UHGV virus genome: UHGV-1363354
Length of the DNA: 40,302 bases
Reading direction: 5' to 3' (one strand)
DNA from: a virus
Positions 6,338-36,838 of this stretch are shown one piece after another. The number at the start of each line of letters is the position of its first letter. The stretch's first letter is position 1. Under the pieces are notes generated by a model. The model was not told the origin of the DNA and did no database searches. It worked only from the letters and a program-made list of their open reading frames with translations. The translations under genes and the position numbers were made by a program.

Positions 6338-6367
6338 AGTATATGTCTAAATCAATGTTGGTTGCAA
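6338..6367 (-). promoter_or_regulatory. Sigma70-type promoter TTGCAA - 18 - TATACT (minus strand), overlapping an ATGTTGGTTGCAAT motif
   Basis: Minus-strand read TTGCAAccaacattgatttagacaTATACT, about 30 nt upstream of the 6307 start. Confidence 0.45.
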
Positions 6368-6639
6368 TACCGAATATCAAAAATAAGGGGCCGCGGTAAC
6401 TGGTATGGTAGTCTACTAGCCTACTTGCGTGCGTGGTGTGCGGAATTGGCTAGGACTAATCTTAATATGGAGAACCGCCCCCAACGCCCGCCAGCACTGC
6501 GATACGGGGATATATTAGTGGTATAGAGAACCACCCTCCCCGACGCTAAAACCTGCGTAACTCGCTGCCAGAATCACCGCAACCAACCAGAAAAATTATC
6601 CTGGCTCCTCGTAGCTGATACTTGCTGCCGTGATATTTA

Positions 6640-6919
6640 CATTCGAGCTATTGCAAACTCGCAATTAAAATGATATGCTCACTGCGTTCGCTTGGCAAAG
6701 CCCGCCAAGGCGACTTGCCTGCGACGCAAGAACGTGAGCATTTCAGGTTTTGCGAATAAAATCCCTCCATAAATCAATCACTTACCTACCGACTCGCAAT
6801 CCATTTTTGCGAAAACCAACAAAAACACCCTAAGTCATTGAAAACGTTACTCGCAATCTCATTCGCAAAATTTTGCGAGTCTTGCGAGTCGATTCGCATT
6901 ACTCGCAACACGTATTATT
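6640..6919. repeat. Iteron-like cluster of at least 8 CTCGCAA / TTGCGA(A/G) heptamers, including the perfect 16-bp palindrome TCGCAAAATTTTGCGA at about 6863-6878
   Basis: Heptamers in both orientations with AT-rich spacers in about 280 bp of non-coding DNA directly downstream of the primase-helicase gene. A 43-bp block (6849-6891) is copied at 36779-36821 with 1 mismatch. Confidence 0.55.
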
Positions 6920-9220
6920 TTACGAGTTTAAGTCCTCATCGCTTGCAACCAATTCCGGCGGGTCGAAGTCGTTTACGCCAGTCGGCAGCCTGTATTGTTG
7001 GTTGTAAACTTCGCCTGTATTCGGGTTGCGTCCGTGCACTAAAACCCGTCGTCGGACTAATTCCTCCAGCACTTTTTTATAGTTGCCGCTGGTGAACTTG
7101 TTTCCGCCGGCGGTGCCGATGGCGTATGGTGAATAGCCTTCCGGTTTATCCTCCAGTAGTTCGAGCTGGGCCACCATCACCTCTTCGGCCTTGTTCTTGG
7201 GCCCTGCGCCGCCGGAGGCTTTCACCGCCTCCCGGGCTACTTCGGCAGCTGGCGATTCGAACGGTGCCAGGGCGACCGGTACCAGGTACAGCGTTTCATC
7301 GCGCGGCGACATCTCCAGCGGTTTCGGCGTCCAGCCGGATAGCTGATCGGAAAAGTCCGGGCCCGCGGCGTTGGACAGATACGCGTCGACGCGGTCGGCG
7401 TGCGCCTGGGGGACGTCGATTTTACATTTCAGCAGGACGAAGCCGCGCGGCGACTGTTTGATGCCGTTACGCGCTTTTTCGTGATAGAGGTTGATCTGGT
7501 GAGGCTTGGCCTCGTCCGGCTGCTCGATGAAGAAGGCGTAATCCACGGCGCCATGAAGCGCGCCAGAGCCGCGGGCGGTACGCTGGCCCGAGGAGGACTT
7601 CGCCGGGTGGTGGATAACGCCGGCGCTGCCGCCGGTGGTCTCGGATATCTGTTTCAGCGCGCGGACGATTTCCCCCATATCGGTTGGGGAGTTTTCGTCG
7701 AACGGCTTTTTAGCTGTGCTGCGCATGGCGACAGTCTGGTTAAGCGAGTCGAAGGCTATCAGGCCGACTGGCGAATCGCCAGCTGCATCACGGATAATCT
7801 TGCATACCTCTTTCACGCCGCGCGCGTCGGTGATGTCGATCCCCTTATCCTGCAGGTCGATGATATGCAGCCAGTCCAGGTCGTCCTGATACATCTTCTG
7901 CAGCGCCTGCTTGCGGTGGAGGCTGGTTTCGCCGCCTTCCGCATCGAAATAAAAGTTGTGGGCGCGCACGACACGCCGTCCGCCGAACGGGATCCCGGCG
8001 GATATGGCCGCCATCTGGCCGAGGACGAAGAACGATTTACCGATGTTCGACTCGCCGGCGGCGTACCAGGTCGATTTGAAGTTAACCAGGCCCTCAATGA
8101 TGGGGTCACGCTTGGTGAACAGGGTAACCGGGTCGTCGTCCAGGTCCTCGTCGGTACACTGGCCGGCGGACGGGCCGTCCAGCGCCGCCATTACCTCGGC
8201 CTCGTAGATGTTGGTGATCTCCTCTTCCGGTAAATCCGGCAGCAGTTCGGCAATTTGCTTTTTGCTGATATTGTGGGCTTCGGGCAAATACTGGTCCGGT
8301 ACGCCGCAAAGGCGAAGCAGCATGTGCTGGTGGGTATTGTGCTTCCTGCAGTGGTCGTGCTGGCACGCGAAGCGCACCTCGGGGTGAAGGGCGTCGGGCA
8401 TCATGATCGCCGTGCTGCCGTCGGTCCCGTCGTTGTCGCTGTGCTGGAAGTGGTTAGGGCACTGTATGGCGAAGCCACGACCAGAGGATAGCGGTTCGAG
8501 GCCCATCTCCCAGCACCACGCGGCGATTGCCTGGCTGTTCTCGCTGGCGTTCTCCAGCGCTTCGTCGGTCCAGTTGGTTGAGCCCGATTCGTCCGGCACG
8601 TCGAACCGGTGGCGCAGGATGCGGCGGACGCTGGCGGGCGCGCCGCGGTGGTCGATGGTTTCCGCTTCGATGTGCGGGGCGAACATAAGACGGGCGCGCT
8701 GGAATGCGGTTTCGTCCATCCCTTTCGCGCCGGTGAGCCCGAGCATATCGATGAATTTGTGCTGGCACGGCCAGATCTCATCCGCCAGCATCGGCCGGTC
8801 TGTCGGGATGAGGAAACGCCAGGAGCGCGACTTAACGCCGCCTTTCAGGTCGTGCCGGTCGCCGCAGGTGGAGTAAGCAAAGAAAGTGTATCCGCCATCC
8901 TCCAGCGCGCGACGCACCCGGCGGATCTCTTTGCTGGAGACTTTGTCGATGTCGATAAACAGCAGGGATCGGGAAATGACGTTGTTGTTATTGCGCTTGT
9001 TGCGCTCAAACTCGGCGGCGACATACGGCAACCGGCCTTTCTTTTCTTCGTAGCGATCTTCGGTCTCGCTGCCGTCAATGGATACCCCCAGCACAGGGTC
9101 AGCGCCGATATCCAGCAGGTCGTCGATAAACTCATCCCAGGAGGATTCGAAAGCCTTCGGGCGATTGTCGGTTTTATGCCGGCCGAGAGAATAGGATATT
9201 TTTGATTTTAACCGTGGCAT
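6920..9220 (-). CDS. Bifunctional DNA primase-polymerase (AEP-type) / RecA-like (AAA_25-type) helicase, with a C-terminal winged-helix-like domain
   Basis: LLFIDIDKVSS (DxD of AEP primases), Zn-binding QCPNH...CQHDHC, Walker A AGESNIGKSF, basic C-terminal region KKVLEELVRRRVLV. 766 aa. Confidence 0.75.
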   Translation of the reverse strand: MPRLKSKISYSLGRHKTDNRPKAFESSWDEFIDDLLDIGADPVLGVSIDGSETEDRYEEKKGRLPYVAAEFERNKRNNNNVISRSLLFIDIDKVSSKEIRRVRRALEDGGYTFFAYSTCGDRHDLKGGVKSRSWRFLIPTDRPMLADEIWPCQHKFIDMLGLTGAKGMDETAFQRARLMFAPHIEAETIDHRGAPASVRRILRHRFDVPDESGSTNWTDEALENASENSQAIAAWCWEMGLEPLSSGRGFAIQCPNHFQHSDNDGTDGSTAIMMPDALHPEVRFACQHDHCRKHNTHQHMLLRLCGVPDQYLPEAHNISKKQIAELLPDLPEEEITNIYEAEVMAALDGPSAGQCTDEDLDDDPVTLFTKRDPIIEGLVNFKSTWYAAGESNIGKSFFVLGQMAAISAGIPFGGRRVVRAHNFYFDAEGGETSLHRKQALQKMYQDDLDWLHIIDLQDKGIDITDARGVKEVCKIIRDAAGDSPVGLIAFDSLNQTVAMRSTAKKPFDENSPTDMGEIVRALKQISETTGGSAGVIHHPAKSSSGQRTARGSGALHGAVDYAFFIEQPDEAKPHQINLYHEKARNGIKQSPRGFVLLKCKIDVPQAHADRVDAYLSNAAGPDFSDQLSGWTPKPLEMSPRDETLYLVPVALAPFESPAAEVAREAVKASGGAGPKNKAEEVMVAQLELLEDKPEGYSPYAIGTAGGNKFTSGNYKKVLEELVRRRVLVHGRNPNTGEVYNQQYRLPTGVNDFDPPELVASDEDLNS

Positions 9221-9522: not shown

Positions 9523-9730
9523 TATAGGAATCCTCTTAATAGATAGGTTGACGTCTGCAATACTATAGTATCTAACCGCACATAATCAAGCATTTTCTGG
9601 TGATTAGCACTAAGTCATTGATTTTACCGGTGCTGCAATTTAATTTGAAAAATCGCTTGCAATCCCGATTTATCTGGACATATTATTACATCGCCGAAAC
9701 GCAACCAACTTAACTAAACGAGGATTTACC
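9523..9730. promoter_or_regulatory. Divergent early control region
   Basis: 208 bp between divergent genes. TTGACG...TATAGT near 9551, TTGCAA - 18 - TATTAT near 9662-9691 (rightward), partial dyads, and GCAACCAACTTAACTAAAC (9701-9719) in the 5' leader of the 9731 gene. Confidence 0.45.
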
Positions 9731-10228
9731 ATGATTGAGAAATTTTACGCACTGCTGGAGCGCTTTGTTATTGCTCTTGAACTGATCGCCACTAACTTCA
9801 GCGCCGAGCGGACGGTAGGTCAGGTCGTCAAAGACGCCGTGAAAGATGCCACAGACACGCCGACCAAATCGGCCCGCACCCGTAAGGCGCCGGCCAAGAA
9901 AGAAGAACCGGAAGACGACGAGCCGGAAGACGACGAGCCGGAAGAGAAGCCTACCACCAAAAAACGTGGTGGCAAAACCGAAGCGCCGGCCAAAACCACC
10001 CGCGGTAAGAAAGGCACCGACAAGCGCGCTGCGATCGGCGAAATGGCAAAAGCTGCCGTAGAAGGCGACGGCCTGGACGATGACGACGCCGACGCGCTGG
10101 TGGATAAGTTCGACGACCTGCTGGAAGACTTCGAAGTTAAGAACGTCAAAGAGCTGGACGACGACCAGGTGGACGAATTCCACGATGCGCTTAAAGAGCT
10201 GATCGAAGAGTTCTACGACGCTGAATAA
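9731..10228 (+). CDS. Highly charged hypothetical early protein (165 aa)
   Basis: First rightward gene. Low-complexity basic middle (KKEEPEDDEPEDDEPEEKPTTKKRGGK) and acidic C-terminus. Confidence 0.5.
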   Translation: MIEKFYALLERFVIALELIATNFSAERTVGQVVKDAVKDATDTPTKSARTRKAPAKKEEPEDDEPEDDEPEEKPTTKKRGGKTEAPAKTTRGKKGTDKRAAIGEMAKAAVEGDGLDDDDADALVDKFDDLLEDFEVKNVKELDDDQVDEFHDALKELIEEFYDAE

Positions 10229-10272: not shown

Positions 10273-10533
10273 ATGAAATATACCCTTATGAAAGGCCGCG
10301 ACTCCCGCGACAACGTGATCGCCTTCTGGCTTCTGCGCACCGACGGCGAGACGAAAGAATGCGCTTACCTCGGCAAATGCCCGCCGCCGGGTAACCGTGG
10401 CGCACAGGCCGCCCGCATTAAGCAGGTGACCATGGTTAAGCCTGATTTTTATGTCTTTGAGGATCAGTCGATGTTTGCGCTTCACTGCGACTATGCGTCG
10501 GCGTCACTGGTCGCAACCTGGGAGACCGTGTAA
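10273..10533 (+). CDS. Hypothetical protein (86 aa)
   Basis: RBS CAGGAGCAA upstream. Stop overlaps the start of the next gene. Confidence 0.45.
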   Translation: MKYTLMKGRDSRDNVIAFWLLRTDGETKECAYLGKCPPPGNRGAQAARIKQVTMVKPDFYVFEDQSMFALHCDYASASLVATWETV

Positions 10534-11861
10534 TGACCAATGCAAGCGGCAGCAATCACGAACACGCCTTGCTGTCTCCGTCCGGGTCGAAAAAATGGCT
10601 GGGGTGCTCTGCATCCCTGCTGTGCGAGAAGGACATCCCGAACGAAAGCGGCCAGGCGGCCATTAACGGGACCGCGATGCACGCGGTATCCGAGGACCTT
10701 TTAAACCGGCACATTAAAGGCGAGACAACCGTAACAGCAGCGCATTACAAGGGCGTATACGTCCTGAATGAAGGCAAAGGCCCTATTAAGGCGGTGGCCG
10801 GCAAGCCGCCCGCCGGCGCGGTACTCATCAACGATGAATTCGTAACCATGGTCGAGCGCTACACCGATTATGCGCTCGGGGTCATCTCATCCGCTGAGTA
10901 CGTCAAAATCGAAATGCGGGCCGAGCTGACTAAGTTACTGCACCCAGGCTATACGGCGGATTTTATCGACGAGCGTACAGGAGAAACCGGAGAAGCAGCA
11001 GTAAAAACCTTCGGCACGGCTGACCTGGTTGCCGTAATCCCGCGCACAGACGGGTCGTTTATGTTGCTGGTCGGCGACCTGAAAACTGGCCGGCACGCGG
11101 TCGACGCTAAAGAGAACAAACAGCTGATGCTGTACGCGCTGGCTATCCTGGCGAAGCTGCGCAGGCTGTATGACATTACGCTGGTGCGCCTGGCGATATT
11201 CCAGCCTTATTGCGGCGGGCCGTCAGAATGGGACATCACGCCAGAGGGGCTTGACATCTTCCGTAAGTTCGCCAGCAAGCGCGCGATCGAAGCGCTTGAC
11301 GTCTACTACGGCGGTAAGAAAAATCTTAAGGCCAGCCATTTCAAGCCGTCGGCCGACGCATGCCAGTGGTGCCGGTTCAACGAGAAATGCAACGCCCGGG
11401 CGAAGGCTGCTATCAAAACGGGCGGCACTACGGCAACCGATGCCGACCTGGGCGACGACAATCACGAAATGACGCCGGAAGAGCTGAAAGCAGCCTATGA
11501 AAAGCTGCCGGAGTTACGCCAGCACATCGCCACGATCGAAAAGGCTATGCATGCGGCGCTGCTGTCCGGCGTTGCGGTGCCCGGCTATAAGCTGGTTACC
11601 GGTAACGAGGGCAATCGTAAATGGTCCGACGCCGCGAAGGTTACCGAAATGCTGGAAGGCGCGCGTATCAAGCGCGATATGATGTTTAAAGAGTCGCTGA
11701 TCTCGCCTACCGACGCGGAAAAAGTCTTTAAGACCGAGAAGCCGCGGATCTGGCGACGCCTTGAAAAGCTGATCGAACGCGCCCCCGGAAAGCCAACAAT
11801 AGCGGCAGCTGACGACCCGCGCGCCGAGTGGAAACAAGCAACCGACGAGGACCTGGAATGA
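10533..11861 (+). CDS. DUF2800-family PD-(D/E)XK nuclease (Cas4/RecB-like phage exonuclease)
   Basis: N-terminal HALLSPSGSKKWLGC and internal LVGDLKTG...ENKQLMLYA motifs. 442 aa. Sits next to DUF2815 and polA, as is typical for this replication module. Confidence 0.6.
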   Translation: MTNASGSNHEHALLSPSGSKKWLGCSASLLCEKDIPNESGQAAINGTAMHAVSEDLLNRHIKGETTVTAAHYKGVYVLNEGKGPIKAVAGKPPAGAVLINDEFVTMVERYTDYALGVISSAEYVKIEMRAELTKLLHPGYTADFIDERTGETGEAAVKTFGTADLVAVIPRTDGSFMLLVGDLKTGRHAVDAKENKQLMLYALAILAKLRRLYDITLVRLAIFQPYCGGPSEWDITPEGLDIFRKFASKRAIEALDVYYGGKKNLKASHFKPSADACQWCRFNEKCNARAKAAIKTGGTTATDADLGDDNHEMTPEELKAAYEKLPELRQHIATIEKAMHAALLSGVAVPGYKLVTGNEGNRKWSDAAKVTEMLEGARIKRDMMFKESLISPTDAEKVFKTEKPRIWRRLEKLIERAPGKPTIAAADDPRAEWKQATDEDLE

Positions 11862-12064
11862 TTATTAAATGGTTCGAAATAATTGGCATTATAGTGGCGT
11901 GGACTATCCATAGCCTGGCTATATCGCCTATCGTTTCGTTGGCTCTGTTAATCATGCTAATTCAGCCTTTGATTAGCGAGGAACGCCTTGACGCTATCGG
12001 CGAATGGGGCTGGCCGGATAGATACGAGGCCTTTATTACGAAAATAACCGGCGTAAAAGTTTGA
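11858..12064 (+). CDS. Small membrane protein (about 68 aa)
   Basis: MIIKWFEIIGIIVAWTIHSLAISPIVSLALLIMLIQPL gives two transmembrane helices. ATGA-coupled to the nuclease gene. Confidence 0.4.
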   Translation: MIIKWFEIIGIIVAWTIHSLAISPIVSLALLIMLIQPLISEERLDAIGEWGWPDRYEAFITKITGVKV

Positions 12065-12142
12065 CATCTGCAACCAACTAAATTAACGTATTCATACCGG
12101 CCCGGCGGTTTCCGGGAGAATCGCAAAAAGTGAGAAACGAAA

Positions 12143-12898
12143 ATGGGAATCAAGGTAAATCTGAAAAAAGTTCGCATCGCATGGTTCTACGGCACCGAGA
12201 AAGCGAAAGCGCAGAATGACGGCGAAAAGGACGCATATCGCGTCGAAATTCTGGTTGACAAGGACGACCACAAAAGTATTGCCAAGCTGGACGAAGCGGC
12301 ATTGGCGGTAATGACCGAAGCGCTTAAATCAGAAAAGGCTGCCGAGAAGTGGCTTAAGCGCGAAAGCGGTCTCGAAGGCAATATCTCCAAAGATTGCGCC
12401 ATCAAAGACGGTGACGAGCGCGACACGGAAGATGAAAATTACGAGCACAAAATCTGGATCCGTGCCAAGTCGTATAAGCAGCCCCGCATCTTAACTGACC
12501 TGGGCGAAGAAACACGCGATGGTGAAGAAGACCTCGAAGGGAACGACCTCGAGGGTAAAGTGCCTTACGGCGGCTGCTTCGCCAACGTGTCGATCGAATT
12601 GTGGGGCCAGAATAACGACAAAGGCAAAGGCCTGCGCTGTAACTGGCTCGGCGTGAAATTCGTCGAAGATGGCGAAGCGTTCGGCGGCGGTGGGTCCAGC
12701 GAGCGCGCCAACGACGACGACCTGGATGACGATGATGAAGACGACGCACCGCGTCGCGGCAAGTCCAAGCCGAAACCGTCCCGCCGCTCCCGTGACGAGG
12801 ATGAAGACGAAGAGGATGAAAAACCCCGCCGTCGCCGTTCTCGCGATGAGGACGACGAAGACGAGGAAGAAGAGCGACCGCGCCGCCGTCGCCGCTAA
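12143..12898 (+). CDS. DUF2815-family (SSB-like OB-fold) protein with a long alternating acidic/Arg-rich C-terminal tail
   Basis: ...GGCFANVSIELWGQNNDKGKGLRCNWLGVKF core resembles DUF2815. The C-terminal 70 aa are DDDLDDDDEDD...RRSRDEDEDEEDEKPRRRRSRDEDDEDEEEERPRRRRR. Confidence 0.55.
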   Translation: MGIKVNLKKVRIAWFYGTEKAKAQNDGEKDAYRVEILVDKDDHKSIAKLDEAALAVMTEALKSEKAAEKWLKRESGLEGNISKDCAIKDGDERDTEDENYEHKIWIRAKSYKQPRILTDLGEETRDGEEDLEGNDLEGKVPYGGCFANVSIELWGQNNDKGKGLRCNWLGVKFVEDGEAFGGGGSSERANDDDLDDDDEDDAPRRGKSKPKPSRRSRDEDEDEEDEKPRRRRSRDEDDEDEEEERPRRRRR

Positions 12899-12904
12899 AA
12901 TCAA

Positions 12905-12927
12905 GGCCCGCGAAAGCGGGCTTTTTC
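12905..12927 (+). terminator. Intrinsic terminator GCCCGC-gaaa-GCGGGC + TTTTT
   Basis: Perfect stem and T-run just after the 12898 stop. Confidence 0.6.
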
Positions 12928-12945
12928 ATATCCGGAGCGTGAACC

Positions 12946-13134
12946 ATGTATAAACACAACCGAAACCGCCCCCATGAAACACGGATCCCCGTCGGTCTGC
13001 CGCTGGATGTCGACGGAGCCAGCGAATACTTAACTCTCCGTCTCGGCCGCAAAATGTACCTGCGAATCGTGGATACCGAGGAACAAGCCCGCCGGCGCAA
13101 AGCAATGACGGCAACCGACGAGGACCTGGAATGA
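12946..13134 (+). CDS. Hypothetical small basic protein (62 aa) ending ATDEDLE
   Basis: ORF-track ORF. Its last 24 nt are identical to the last 24 nt of the DUF2800 gene and overlap the polA start. Confidence 0.4.
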   Translation: MYKHNRNRPHETRIPVGLPLDVDGASEYLTLRLGRKMYLRIVDTEEQARRRKAMTATDEDLE

Positions 13135-15317
13135 AGTTCGATAACCTTTTTCTCGACACTGAAACATTCAGCGCCTGCGACCTGAAAAAATGTGGGTCAT
13201 ATGCTTATGCCGAGCATCCGTCCACCGAAATTATGATAACCACCTTCGCTATTGACGACGGCCCGGTTATGGAGTGGGATGCAACGGCAGACCCCCGGAT
13301 GCCGCGGGTATTGCGCCGGGCGCTGCGCGAGGTATGCAAGCAGAATACGAAGAGCCGGATTGTTATGCAAAACGGCCTTTTGTTCGATCGCCTTCTCATG
13401 CGCCATTGTTGGGGCATAGAGATCCCGGTAAAAAACAGCATCGATACGATGATCTGCGCCTACAGGCTGTCGCTTCCCGGCTCCCTGGACGCGCTATGCC
13501 GCGTTCTGGAGATATCCGAGGACTTAGCCAAGGATAAAGCCGGTAAAGCGCTGATACAGCGATTCTGTAAGCCTACGCCGAAAAATTACAAGATCCGCCG
13601 CTACACCCGCGAAACGCATCCGGAAGAGTGGCGCCGTTTTCTGAAATATGCCCGCAGCGATATATCGTCAATGCGTGAGGTGTTTTATGCGCTGCCGACG
13701 TGGGGCGATACTGAGAAGGAAAACGAGATACTCGCCATCGACCAGGCGATCAACGACCGCGGCTTTTACGTCGACATAGCGCTGGCCGAATCCGCCGTCG
13801 CCGCGGTTAAGCAGCACAAGCTGGACCTGCAGCGCGAGGCGATGGCTAAATACGGCGGCAGCCTGACCGGTAAGGACTTCCTCCCGATCCTGCGAGACCT
13901 GGCGCCCGCATTCGATATCCCTAACGCGCAGAAAGCAACCCTGGGCGATCTGCTGGACGACGAGGACCTGCCAGACGCCGCCCGGGCACTTATCGAAATG
14001 CGCCTCGGCGCTGCGTCCACCGCCTCCACCAAGTACGACCCGCTGCTGCGCGGCTTATCCAGCGACGGCCGGCGCCGCGGCTGTTTGCAGTATGGCGGCG
14101 CGAAAAGGACGCTGCGATGGGCGGGTAAAGGCTTCCAGCCGCAGAACCTGGCGCGCGGACATTACGAAGGCGAAGACCTTGATTACGGGATCCGTTGTCT
14201 TAAGCGCAACCGCATCACGAAGGCTTTCGACATCGCCAAGTTAACGGCAACCACGGTTCGCGGGTGCATTATCGCGGCGCCCGGATGCAAGCTGGTTGTT
14301 GCCGACTACTCGAACGTCGAAGGGCGCGGCCTGGCGTGGATATCCGGCGAAGAGGCGACGCTTAATGTTTTCCGGGCTGGTACGGACCTGTATAAGACGC
14401 TCGCGGCCACCGTGTTCTGCGTGTCGTATGACGACGTGTCGAAGGACCAGCGCCAGATCGCCAAGGCGATGATTCTCGGCCTGGGTTACGGTGGCGGCGT
14501 GGCGGCATTCCTGACGTTTGCCAAAAACCTCGGCCTAGACCTTGACCGGCTGGCGCACGACCTGGCGGGCACATTCCCGGACCATATCTGGAAGGCTGCG
14601 CGCCGGGGGTGGGAGTTTGCCCGCATCCAGGAGAAGAACAAGCGCGCTCCGAAGGGCAAGAAGGCCGAGCGCCCGTCGTATGACCTGCCGAAAAAGGTGT
14701 GGCTGACCTGTGACGCATTGAAACGCATGTACCGCGAGGCTAACCCGAATATCGTTAATTTCTGGGCCGAGCTGGAAGCGGCGGCATTGAGCGCGATCCG
14801 CAATCCTGGCCGGTCATTTTGGGCGGGCGCCCGAGTCCGTGAGAATGGCGACAAGGCCGTTAAGTTCACTCGCACAGTGAAAAACGGTAACCCGGGTTGG
14901 TGGCTTAAGGTTGAGCTGCCGTCTGGTCGCATCCTGTCGTATCCGGGGATCGGCCTGTCGGTCGAGAAAGAGGAAGACGAGGACACCGGCGAGATCCGCA
15001 CGCGTACCCGCATCAAATACCAGGGGGAGAACCAGACGACGCGCCAGTGGGGTTGGCAATATACCTATGGCGGCAAGCTGGCTGAAAACATCGTACAGGC
15101 CCTTTGCCGTGACCTGCTGGCCTGGTCAATGCCTGGCGTCGAGGCCGCCGGGTATAAGATTATTCTGTCCGTGCATGATGAACTTTTAACCGAAGTTCCC
15201 GACACGCCGGAGTACACCGTCAAAGAGCTGGAGCGCCTCATGTGCGTGCTGCCGGCATGGGCTAAAGACTTCCCATTGAGCGCTGAGGGTTGGGAGGGTC
15301 GGCGGTACAAGAAGTAG
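13131..15317 (+). CDS. polA: Family A DNA polymerase with N-terminal 3'-5' exonuclease
   Basis: Exo I LFLDTETFS. Pol motif A VVADYSNVEGRGLAW, motif B RQIAKAMILGLGYGGG, motif C LSVHDELLTEV. Confidence 0.9.
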   Translation: MKFDNLFLDTETFSACDLKKCGSYAYAEHPSTEIMITTFAIDDGPVMEWDATADPRMPRVLRRALREVCKQNTKSRIVMQNGLLFDRLLMRHCWGIEIPVKNSIDTMICAYRLSLPGSLDALCRVLEISEDLAKDKAGKALIQRFCKPTPKNYKIRRYTRETHPEEWRRFLKYARSDISSMREVFYALPTWGDTEKENEILAIDQAINDRGFYVDIALAESAVAAVKQHKLDLQREAMAKYGGSLTGKDFLPILRDLAPAFDIPNAQKATLGDLLDDEDLPDAARALIEMRLGAASTASTKYDPLLRGLSSDGRRRGCLQYGGAKRTLRWAGKGFQPQNLARGHYEGEDLDYGIRCLKRNRITKAFDIAKLTATTVRGCIIAAPGCKLVVADYSNVEGRGLAWISGEEATLNVFRAGTDLYKTLAATVFCVSYDDVSKDQRQIAKAMILGLGYGGGVAAFLTFAKNLGLDLDRLAHDLAGTFPDHIWKAARRGWEFARIQEKNKRAPKGKKAERPSYDLPKKVWLTCDALKRMYREANPNIVNFWAELEAAALSAIRNPGRSFWAGARVRENGDKAVKFTRTVKNGNPGWWLKVELPSGRILSYPGIGLSVEKEEDEDTGEIRTRTRIKYQGENQTTRQWGWQYTYGGKLAENIVQALCRDLLAWSMPGVEAAGYKIILSVHDELLTEVPDTPEYTVKELERLMCVLPAWAKDFPLSAEGWEGRRYKK

Positions 15318-18897: not shown

Positions 18898-19381
18898 CAA
18901 ATCAAACACGGCTCCGGAGGATAAGGACTGCTGGCGCTCACCACCGGAGATATTCGAGCCGCTGAATGAGCGGTTTAATTTCCGCTATGACATGGCGGCA
19001 GCAGATCACAATGCACTTTGCGCACGGTACTACACGGAACAGAATAGCGCCCTGGGTATCGAGTGGCCCGCAGCATGGAAATGGTGTAACCCGCCATACT
19101 CGAAGCCGCTGCCTTGGTTCCAGCACGCCGCGCAGTACCGGAAAACGGTGTTGCTCCTGCACCTGGCCGTCGCTACGCAGTGGATGGATATTGCGCGCCG
19201 GGAGGCGAATACCATCATTCAGCTGACAGAGCGCATTCAGTTTATCCACGCCAGGACCGGCGAGCGCGCGGCGACGAAGAACAACCGCGACTCGGAGATC
19301 ATCATCTTTGGCCGTCGGCCTAACCCTGACGGCGCGCGCATCGTCCAGTGCTCGATCGCGGATATCGCAAAATATCTATAA
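18890..19381 (+). CDS. dam: Phage-type DNA N6-adenine methyltransferase (Dam)
   Basis: DMAAADHNALCARYYT and catalytic NPPY (WCNPPYSK) motifs. Confidence 0.8.
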   Translation: MADKSNTAPEDKDCWRSPPEIFEPLNERFNFRYDMAAADHNALCARYYTEQNSALGIEWPAAWKWCNPPYSKPLPWFQHAAQYRKTVLLLHLAVATQWMDIARREANTIIQLTERIQFIHARTGERAATKNNRDSEIIIFGRRPNPDGARIVQCSIADIAKYL

Positions 19382-19417
19382 ATGTTGGTTGCAATATTAG
19401 CGAAGTCATATTATATT
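19382..19417 (+). promoter_or_regulatory. Promoter (c): ATGTTGGTTGCAAT - 17 - TATATT
   Basis: -35 TTGCAA at 19389-19394 and -10 TATATT at 19412-19417. About 80% identical over 58 bp to the promoter at 35462. Confidence 0.5.
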
Positions 19418-19436
19418 TAGTTCATAGGGCGGCGCG

Positions 19437-35366: not shown

Positions 35367-35461
35367 AGTACGTAGACCCCTGGTCTTTATGAATCCGGGC
35401 CACCCGGATTTACATACGCTAAATATACAGGGCAGCGCAAGTATTAACAATATATCTGTAA

Positions 35462-35497
35462 ATGTTGGTTGCAATATGAGTGGAGACATATTACAGT
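35462..35497 (+). promoter_or_regulatory. Promoter (d): ATGTTGGTTGCAAT - 17 - TACAGT, a near-duplicate of promoter (c)
   Basis: -35 TTGCAA at 35469-35474 and -10 at 35492-35497, followed by the conserved TTAGTTCAT. Confidence 0.5.
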
Positions 35498-35529
35498 TAG
35501 TTCATCGAGCCGAAACCGAGGAAACCAAC

Positions 35530-36721: not shown

Positions 36722-36838
36722 ACTCGCAAACTAAAACGGCAGCAACCAACTAAATTAACCTAAGTCCTTGATATCTATACTCGCAATTTCATTCGCAAAA
36801 TTTTGCGAGTCTTGCGAGTCGTCGCTACTCGTAATAAA
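36722..36838. repeat. Second copy of the CTCGCAA/TTGCGAG block with the TCGCAAAATTTTGCGA palindrome (36779-36821), plus GCAACCAACTAAATTAAC (36742-36759) and the CTCGTAAtttaTTACGAG dyad overlapping the upstream gene's stop
   Basis: 43-bp block with 1 mismatch to 6849-6891. Lies in the 244-bp non-coding gap between the head-morphogenesis and Rz genes. Confidence 0.55.

Follow-up and report, generated by a model that had tools for sequence, protein, structure and literature searches.

A probable dual-coding gene end in a Klebsiella siphophage: a tail peptide of replication proteins, a ribosome-binding signal and a putative short gene conversion in one 24-mer

Acidic C-terminal tails shared between replication proteins are described in phage T7, in which the gp4 tails bind two basic patches of gp5, and the gp2.5 tail binds both gp5 and the helicase and is needed for stimulating the gp6 exonuclease (PMC12593628, PMC4124056). 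Crystal structures of Enc34 ORF6, of two further DUF2815 proteins and of gp2.5 place the tail on the DNA-binding sheet of a neighbouring molecule (PMC5686142). Here we analyse a 24-nucleotide (nt) sequence, GCAACCGACGAGGACCTGGAATGA, that closes two genes in the replication region of UHGV virus genome UHGV-1363354; the whole stretch of 40,302 nt, hereafter the window, belongs to a Klebsiella siphophage of the subfamily Guernseyvirinae and is ~93% identical to 37P2 and VLCpiS11a over 10533-15317. We consider it probable that this is a dual-coding gene end, in which a peptide, the Shine-Dalgarno sequence (SD) and start of the next gene, and a recent gene conversion come together, and whose tail brings its carriers to a shared docking partner. 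In the mechanism we propose, the 24-mer encodes a short linear motif, an acidic run and then Asp-Leu at 0-4 residues from the C-terminus, that is borne by a Cas4-like DUF2800 exonuclease, by the primase-helicase, by a 62-amino-acid (aa) protein of the Klebsiella clade (open reading frame 62, ORF62) and, at the start of its tail, by the protein that binds single-stranded DNA (SSB), with further copies in probably disordered linkers. Where a downstream gene overlaps, the codons of the motif are in addition chosen to spell an SD (GAGG or GAGGA) that precedes by 6-9 nt an ATG overlapping the stop, so that this gene would be coupled, and a recent conversion of 17-24 nt would have overwritten the DUF2800 tail with the ORF62 version. 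The principle is known in kind from T7 and from the C-terminal motif of bacterial SSB (SSB-Ct); new would be the sequence, the set of carriers, the linker copies, the dual coding and the conversion between non-homologous genes.

The 24-mer is present at exactly two sites of the window, both on the plus strand, and no third match was found within the window at up to three mismatches. Chance or codon bias as the source of the pair was ruled out, as 0 of 100 shuffles contained any match and the probability of these exact codons given the peptide ATDEDLE is ~0.006. The first copy (11838-11861) supplies the final seven codons (ATDEDLE) and the TGA stop of the DUF2800 nuclease gene, which ends ...KQATDEDLE; the second (13111-13134), the probable donor of the conversion, supplies the final seven codons (ATDEDLE) and the stop of ORF62, which ends ...MTATDEDLE. 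Inside each copy a GAGGA (11847-11851 and 13120-13124, plus strand) stands 6 nt before the ATG of the next gene, that of a membrane protein at 11858 and that of polA at 13131, and in both the stop/start overlap reads ATGA. These sites bear out the initial annotation, which had reported that an identical 24-mer ends the nuclease and the 62-aa ORF and places GAGGA 6 nt ahead of the overlapping downstream ATG; its remark that the primase-helicase has a similar tail in other codons also holds, the codons being GCA AGC GAT GAG GAC TTA AAC TCG TAA. That tail, ASDEDLNS, is encoded at 6920-6946 on the minus strand and is followed by an intergenic region of ~600 nt with no overlapping gene. Contigs in IMG/VR contain the 24-mer once each, and an exact-pattern scan of metagenome contigs gave no match to a DUF2800-linked 24-mer.

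The peptide was compared across 72 IMG/VR loci with DUF2800 homologues (49-98% identity) and 12 more distant environmental loci, giving a sample of 84 that represents the Guernseyvirinae and their environmental relatives. In essentially all 84 loci nuclease and primase-helicase alike close with [ST][DE][DEG]DL followed by 0-4 residues, with clade-specific pairs of nuclease and primase-helicase tails such as SDEDLS and SDEDLNS, TDEDLSNE and TDDDLKD, or [ST]EEDLE and TE[EG]DLE. The primase-helicases range from 26 to 98% identity, merely 26-49% beyond the Klebsiella clade with the tail still kept, and 68 homologues retain it at identities as low as 26%. Conservation reaches at least 90% in the D and L columns, against 30-60% in those around them, and nuclease residues D440 and L441 are invariant in 16 representatives of 36-55% identity. 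Most versions of the peptide are written in 3-8 synonymous codon strings, and in most phages the two tails are alike in amino acids and not in codons (Ser TCC vs AGT; GAAGAA vs GAGGAG). The number of residues after DL is at most loosely correlated between nuclease and primase-helicase. Because the motif persists at 26-50% protein identity with many synonymous codon versions, we read these alignments as showing a conserved, replication-specific terminal motif under peptide-level selection; a search of relatives for the same peptide with diverged nucleotides, the check that the initial annotation had named, thus came out in favour of such selection.

The motif is also confined to few proteins. 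Among the other six-frame ORFs of these loci, a motif ending was found in 1 of 9,250, which was itself a primase-helicase fragment, and a shuffle test of C-terminal motifs gave P = 3e-4. Across the whole genome of phage K1G, motif endings occur only on the exonuclease and the primase-helicase, the single additional match being an internal STNADL of a tail protein. In all clades the SSB has [ST]x[DEN]DDL[EDG]DD immediately past the core of the oligonucleotide/oligosaccharide-binding (OB) fold. Beyond the subfamily, among the best 150 of 10,786 DUF2800 cluster representatives, the ~19 closest end in x-x-DL plus 1-2 residues, and many of the more distant ones in this set have acidic-hydrophobic ends (...DDFEDL..., ...DDLI, ...EDLV, ...DDLF).

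Further copies lie inside the proteins of the window. A six-frame scan of the 40-kb window for [ASCN][STN][DE][DEGA]DL returned six sites in four replication genes, all in frame; when the residues of the proteome were shuffled (a 58-gene greedy set, with the ORF62 copy excluded), 0.08 sites were expected against 5 counted, and 0 of 20,000 shuffles reached 5. Three of these, inside proteins or in the SSB tail, had been missed by the initial annotation. The first is a third nucleotide copy of 17 nt (ACCGACGAGGACCTGGA, 8139-8155, minus strand) within the primase-helicase gene, where QCTDEDLDDDP (~8126-8158) forms a linker directly ahead of the AAA_25 helicase domain; preferred codons alone could explain this 17-nt match (~0.08). 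An internal start after this linker motif, as in T7 gp4B, was ruled out, there being no start codon beyond the motif. The DUF2800 nuclease has an internal copy, TATDADLGDD (11430-11459, plus strand), in the linker that joins the nuclease core to the C-terminal domain; it falls in residues 297-312, the sole internal segment of the AlphaFold2 (AF2) model with a predicted local distance difference test score (pLDDT) below 50, and loci L009-L023 form a clade with an equivalent copy, TATD[ED]DLGDD. The SSB tail starts with ANDDDLDDDD (from 12707). In PolA, LLDDEDLPD (13958-13977) was dropped as a motif copy, being internal, outside an [ST] context and taken as structural; it is conserved across most PolA homologues.

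For nine further lineages we read the replication module whole. In Enc34 and the Chi-like iEPS5, the primase, a small ORF, the DUF2800 exonuclease and the DUF2815 SSB all end in [DE]3V, and the same lineage tail, ...DDDEV, closes the small terminase (TerS) of both (L162 10318-10893 and L165 10800-11369), an indication that a single peptide tag may connect packaging with replication. Enc34 ORF17 (L162 17801-18085), adjoining the major head gene, ends ...ADDEV. The Scapp proteins end ...EEFEELE (primase), ...SDFENLE (DUF2800) and ...YEEFDE (small ORF), the primase, small ORF, DUF2800 protein and SSB of AchV4 end in D..L[ALF], and Streptococcus phage Javan92 has ...DYDFLD on its primase-helicase and ...DDDFLN on its SSB; in APSE-2 tail sharing is partial. 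T7, read likewise, has ...DGDF on gp2.5 and ...DTDF on gp4, with gp6 tail-free. The SSB tail stands at the terminus in Enc34, iEPS5, AchV4 and Javan92 and at the start of the tail in the window's subfamily. PolA showed no C-terminal motif or tail in any lineage examined. As these sequences read, the carriers of one phage share a tail that differs from lineage to lineage, a pattern expected if all carriers bind one co-evolving receptor.

By analogy with the acidic ...DF tails of T7 gp4 and gp2.5, whose docking sites are basic patches of the T7 DNA polymerase (gp5/thioredoxin) and the DNA groove of gp2.5, the tail would dock its carriers on one replisome receptor. The same analogy points to PolA as the first candidate receptor and to the OB-fold groove of the SSB as the second, PolA leading as the core enzyme that is tail-free throughout. 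A T7-like docking had already been suggested in the initial annotation; the conservation of the tail and its lineage-matched versions speak for that suggestion, and the receptor is put forward by analogy only. As in T7, a primase-helicase and a gp2.5-type SSB stand beside a tail-free family-A polymerase, and an acidic run plus a hydrophobic residue near the C-terminus (ATDEDLE, ASDEDLNS) is common to different proteins of one phage, here the primase-helicase and the nuclease, with the SSB copy at the start of its tail and not at the terminus. The hydrophobic residue is Leu followed by 0-4 residues, whereas T7 has a terminal Phe; the exonuclease and a 62-aa protein carry the tail here, unlike T7 gp6; copies occur in internal linkers; and the SSB runs on past the motif into acidic/basic blocks that end in RRRRR.

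The motif further resembles the bacterial SSB-Ct (...DDDIPF), a hub for genome-maintenance proteins whose disordered tail draws in many partners, in being short, linear and acidic-hydrophobic, and the distant DUF2800 ends (...DDFEDL..., ...DDLI, ...DDLF) and a Bacteroides phage SSB of this module, which ends ...KLPF, come close to it. It differs from SSB-Ct in sequence, in that the terminal carboxylate stands at no fixed distance, and in that the polarity is reversed, many enzymes carrying the motif, presumably towards one receptor. Enc34 ORF6 belongs to the homologous SSB family (DUF2815), and the concave sheet of a neighbouring SSB, on which its tail docks in the crystal, is a physically observed receptor for such tails, although its own tail, ...WDEDEV, lies at the extreme C-terminus; that the same ending is present on the Enc34 primase, ORF3, exonuclease and TerS is not reported in PMC5686142. 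We found no description of the shared-tail motif in the literature searched (open-access text).

Several points weigh against docking on a common partner. The loci are phylogenetically non-independent, so that the counts above overstate the number of independent events, and matching tails are weak or absent in 3-4 of the 9 lineages (Bob, RcMcLean and BK735P3, with APSE-2 partial). The last 10-12 residues of the DUF2800 protein have pLDDT 67-80 in the AF2 model and include a short 4-residue helix, and the tail may therefore, according to the model, pack partly on its own domain. The distance of 0-4 residues after DL, together with the internal copies, implies recognition without a fixed terminal carboxylate, unlike SSB-Ct or the T7 ...DF tails. 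The docking itself is argued from analogy, and the presence of the tail on TerS in Enc34 and Chi-like phages may mean that the tag is broader than the replisome or addresses a host factor.

This last point leads to the alternative that the tail is a functional tag of another kind, namely a degron, a handle for chaperones or for some host factor, or a DNA mimic that autoinhibits its carrier by occupying the site where the carrier binds DNA. We regard this as improbable. Besides TerS, a head-region ORF carries the lineage tail in these phages, the tails of T7 gp2.5 and the Enc34 SSB occupy DNA-binding grooves (PMC5686142), and the moderate pLDDT of the DUF2800 tail would suit such a role; yet autoinhibition would not need the same sequence on unrelated folds of one phage, and the carrier set mirrors T7 gp4/gp2.5. 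To our knowledge, there is also no E. coli or Klebsiella degron that resembles [ST]DEDLE, which we count against this alternative.

A bolder form of the docking reading, which we hold to be doubtful, is that the tail serves as a lineage-specific 'address tag' for assembling DNA metabolism around one hub, the SSB with its multivalent acidic and basic tail or PolA. If true, the address tag would mark the primase-helicase, the Cas4-like exonuclease, the SSB and small adaptors, and its presence on TerS in Chi-like phages would couple replication, recombination and packaging; the address code would co-evolve with its receptor and be kept uniform partly by intragenomic gene conversion; and ORF62, bearing the tag, would act as a regulator or competitor whose own mRNA segment is also the one loading ribosomes onto polA. 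The tail model predicts a single receptor and the incompatibility of modules exchanged between lineages. The module of primase, DUF2800, DUF2815 and PolA is very widespread, with DUF2800 in 1,369 phage records and 10,786 cluster representatives, and, the Enc34 SSB structure aside, the literature searched yielded no biochemical study of it. A shared tail would provide a handle on replisome assembly that names its members, small ORFs included, and a flag for annotating replisome-associated small proteins. The window would also be a natural example of 24 nt under two constraints, with synonymous codons that switch with context and a very short conversion between non-homologous genes.

We next turn to why the two copies in the window are identical letter for letter. 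The DUF2800 gene of nine close relatives ends in GATGAGGAT[TC]TATCATGA, encoding [AV][ST]DEDLS, and that of the eight closest in G[CT]n [TA][CG]n GAT GAG GAT TTA TCA TGA ([AV]SDEDLS); the 18-nt core GATGAGGATTTATCATGA is unchanged even in relatives with 44-93 differences per 450 upstream nt. Compared with its nearest relatives, the window has 16-29 differences in the 450 nt upstream (a background of 3.5-6%) and 5-9 within the 24-mer, and every window-specific change in the tail is the nucleotide of the ORF62 copy, 1,273 bp downstream. Of the 9 clade genomes compared, 8 have exactly this ORF62 copy, as does the ENA contig L082; in L005 a single synonymous change sets it apart. The flanks of the converted tail are untouched, and its earlier identity to the donor was 17/24. 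Because the window is nested in a tight group and yet its clustered tail changes all match the ORF62 copy, the most parsimonious account of these sequences is that its DUF2800 tail is a derived state, produced by an ectopic gene conversion or template switch of 17-24 nt from 13111-13134 to 11838-11861. This resembles short-patch ectopic gene conversion in its cluster of 7-9 substitutions, which match a paralogous donor 1.27 kb away and leave the flanks unchanged, and differs from it in the very short tract (17-24 nt) and the low prior identity (17/24). Candidate mechanisms are annealing by a phage single-strand annealing protein (SSAP) and exonuclease, or template switching. A single conversion is harder to reconcile with the tail of L082, which is intermediate (GCAACCGATGAGGATCTATCATGA, with ACC and CTA, but GAT...TCA), and the window state may have been reached partly through stepwise change or several small patches.

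It is improbable, in our view, that the 24-mer is chiefly a recombination linker, a short block of homology at module boundaries for cassette exchange between phages, whose duplication marks an insertion or exchange boundary of the membrane-SSB-ORF62 segment. Mosaic breakpoints do enclose the ORF62 copy as an island of identity: up to it the C-terminal half of ORF62 differs in L006 and L082, after it the next gene differs in L007 and L082, and VLCpiS11a and L003 have another gene behind the DUF2800 tail. What lies between the two copies is nevertheless syntenic and homologous in all relatives with a single 24-mer, so that the repeat bounds no insertion; insertion with direct repeats or a target-site duplication was ruled out on the same ground. 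Peptide, SD and start together fully explain the conservation of the island, and breakpoints at gene ends are to be expected anyway.

Translational coupling is the other constraint on the 24-mer. We call an end coupled when it is overlapped or closely trailed by an ATG that opens at least 40 codons. An SD tetramer is present in 46 of 46 coupled DUF2800 ends, in which the acidic codon pair is GAGGAG, GAYGAG or GAGGAT. Among the uncoupled DUF2800 ends, 20 of 23 have no SD tetramer and still encode [ST]E[ED]DLE or [ST]E[ED]DLEA, mostly with GAAGAA or GAAGAC and then TAA and a TTGACA box. The primase-helicase tails are uncoupled in 53 of 68 cases, with the motif kept. Conversely, an unrelated 89-aa ORF that precedes polA in L082 ends ...RTGE, with GAGGA and ATGA but without the motif. 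Because each occurs without the other among relatives, the peptide and the ribosome signal are independent, and coupling is, as far as sequence comparison goes, a real but secondary layer: SD/ATGA and peptide are separable constraints that coincide in the 24-mer. As in other stop/start overlaps, the ATGA with GAGGA 6 nt upstream is kept in relatives and codon choice tracks the coupled gene; the difference here is that the signal sits within an independently selected peptide motif. The 24-mer had been described in the initial annotation as a duplicated translational-coupling cassette. Of this description the coupling by SD and ATGA stands, and the duplication does not, as both tails already existed with different codons; nor does the label of a coupling cassette cover a peptide that persists without SD or downstream gene, or L082, which supplies SD and ATGA without the peptide.

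A purely nucleotide element, with a duplicated coupling cassette of SD, spacer and ATGA and with the peptide as a by-product of an in-frame GAnGAGGAn, is accordingly largely refuted as the sole explanation, and we give it slim odds. It would account for the GAGGA 6 nt before the overlapping ATG in both copies, for the SD tetramer in all coupled DUF2800 tails, for codon choice that follows coupling (GAGGAG/GAYGAG/GAGGAT when coupled, mostly GAAGAA/GAAGAC when not) and for the GAGGA and ATGA supplied by any gene that precedes polA. The ancestral DUF2800 end GATGAGGATTTATCATGA can also be counted in its favour. It uses rare codons (TTA is ~7% of Leu codons, and GAT is the minor Asp codon), and its synonymous sites are invariant in eight IMG/VR and GenBank relatives, including those with flanks 10-20% diverged, with one change (CTA) in L082; this suggests selection at the RNA level, perhaps for an A/T-rich spacer between SD and start. 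Against a nucleotide element as the whole account, the peptide is kept without SD or downstream gene in 20 DUF2800 and 22 primase-helicase tails, the primase-helicase tail of the window meets an intergenic region, the internal and SSB copies have no start codon after them, and other lineages share tails that do not resemble an SD (DEV, DFLD).

Least probable, and largely refuted here, is that easily arising acidic ends were homogenised by neutral concerted evolution or matched by chance without a common function: a conversion is inferred in the window, the 17-nt third copy is unremarkable (~0.08) and acidic tails are common among DNA-binding proteins, but in most phages amino acids match and codons do not, D-L is invariant over 26-50% identity, the motif is restricted to replication proteins by the ORF count and shuffle test given above, and one and the same set of orthologues bears another fixed tail in each of several lineages.

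The donor of the conversion, ORF62 (12946-13134, plus strand), consists of a conserved N-terminus MYKHNRNRPHETRIPVGLPLDV, a variable body and the ATDEDLE tail. It was found only in the Klebsiella clade, where its 37 homologues have three body variants (58, 62 and 67 aa), and it has no Pfam or PHROG match. Across 17 aligned homologues the N-terminus is invariant and the tail reads A-T-D-E-D-L-E, with T alone varying, in one sequence. By analogy with the other carriers, ORF62 looks like an adaptor or a competitor for the same dock. A GC-rich hairpin with a T-run, GCCCGCGAAAGCGGGCTTTTT (12906-12926, plus strand), can be read between the SSB gene and ORF62 and is kept in relatives; a promoter/terminator consensus scan lists its stem (12906-12921) on the minus strand only, as a terminator-like site. 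The position of this hairpin implies that ORF62 opens a new translational unit that feeds polA. Because the hairpin stands between the SSB gene and ORF62, and no SD outside ORF62 serves polA, we propose that translation of ORF62 delivers ribosomes to polA. In close relatives the ORF62-polA and SSB-ORF62 junctions are hot spots for the insertion of small ORFs (L082 5645-5914; L007 after 8636; L002 7490-7681), and each inserted small ORF recreates GAGGA and ATGA onto the next gene.

The carriers and their neighbours were assigned from profiles and structure models. The gene of the DUF2800, Cas4-like PD-(D/E)XK exonuclease (10533-11861, plus strand) encodes 442 aa with the C-terminal DL tail and matches Pfam DUF2800 (6e-70), PDDEXK_1 and a PHROG exonuclease. 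Its AF2 model has a mean pLDDT of 84.8, and a Foldseek search with it retrieved Cas4-family, AdnAB, AddAB, Exo5 and RecE nucleases (E 1e-6 to 1e-4); a four-Cys cluster (C25, C277, C280 and C286) is invariant in 16 sequences of 36-55% identity. The primase-helicase gene (6920-9220, minus strand; 766 aa) matches Pfam AAA_25 from residue 365, BT4734-like_N and a PHROG replicative helicase-primase (3.5e-265). PolA (13131-15317, plus strand) is a tail-free family-A DNA polymerase with matches to Pfam DNA_pol_A and a PHROG DNA polymerase.

The gene of the DUF2815, T7 gp2.5-type SSB (12143-12898, plus strand) matches Pfam Enc34_ssDNA-bd (1.5e-27) and a gp2.5-like PHROG (1.4e-44). Its tail (12716-12891) is built of three tandem acidic-then-basic blocks, DDDDEDDAPRRGK, DEDEDEEDEKPRRRRSR and DEDDEDEEEERPRRRRR, with a final RRRRR; relatives have 1-4 such blocks, nearly all with a short basic run at the end, mostly RRRR, a composition unlike the purely acidic tails of T7 gp2.5 and Enc34 ORF6. 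Between nuclease and SSB lies a gene for a hydrophobic, probably membrane protein of 68 aa (11858-12064, plus strand), whose start overlaps the DUF2800 stop via ATGA; it has an annotated homologue in 37P2, and non-homologous small hydrophobic ORFs are found at the same place in other relatives. Many clades have such a small hydrophobic gene after the DUF2800 nuclease, with the position kept and the sequence not (L003, L009, L011, L064), and K1G-like phages have a TTGACA box there instead of a membrane-protein gene. The rightward replication operon opens with a 165-aa acidic protein (9731-10228) that contains FDDLLEDFE and ends ...KELIEEFYDAE, an acidic-aromatic ending distinct from the DL tail; in position it corresponds to the small ORFs that bear tails in Scapp (...EEIYEEFDE), Enc34 (ORF3) and iEPS5 (hyp070).

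Two families of repeats lie in intergenic parts of the window. Repeats around GCAACCAAC / GTTGGTTGC, 20-63 nt long and in both orientations, are found at 2567-2597, 6351-6369, 9701-9721, 12063-12095, 19368-19430, 35448-35510 and 36742-36762, and are likely to be phage promoter or regulatory boxes. The TTGACA box at 12063 was read from the sequence only and was not flagged by the promoter/terminator consensus scan. The repeat at 12063-12095 (TTGACATCTGCAACCAACTAAATTAACGT) is 100% conserved in 37P2 and VLCpiS11a despite a swapped adjoining membrane-protein gene. Two intergenic clusters, 6657-6908 and 36722-36819, together contain the octamer TTGCGAGT 10 times, against 1.5 expected, and one of them lies directly downstream of the primase-helicase stop. 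A 105-nt repeat with the palindrome TCGCAAAATTTTGCGA inside it is common to both regions at 79% identity, and the regions are candidate iterons or operator arrays, that is, origin sites or sites for a helix-turn-helix (HTH) regulator.

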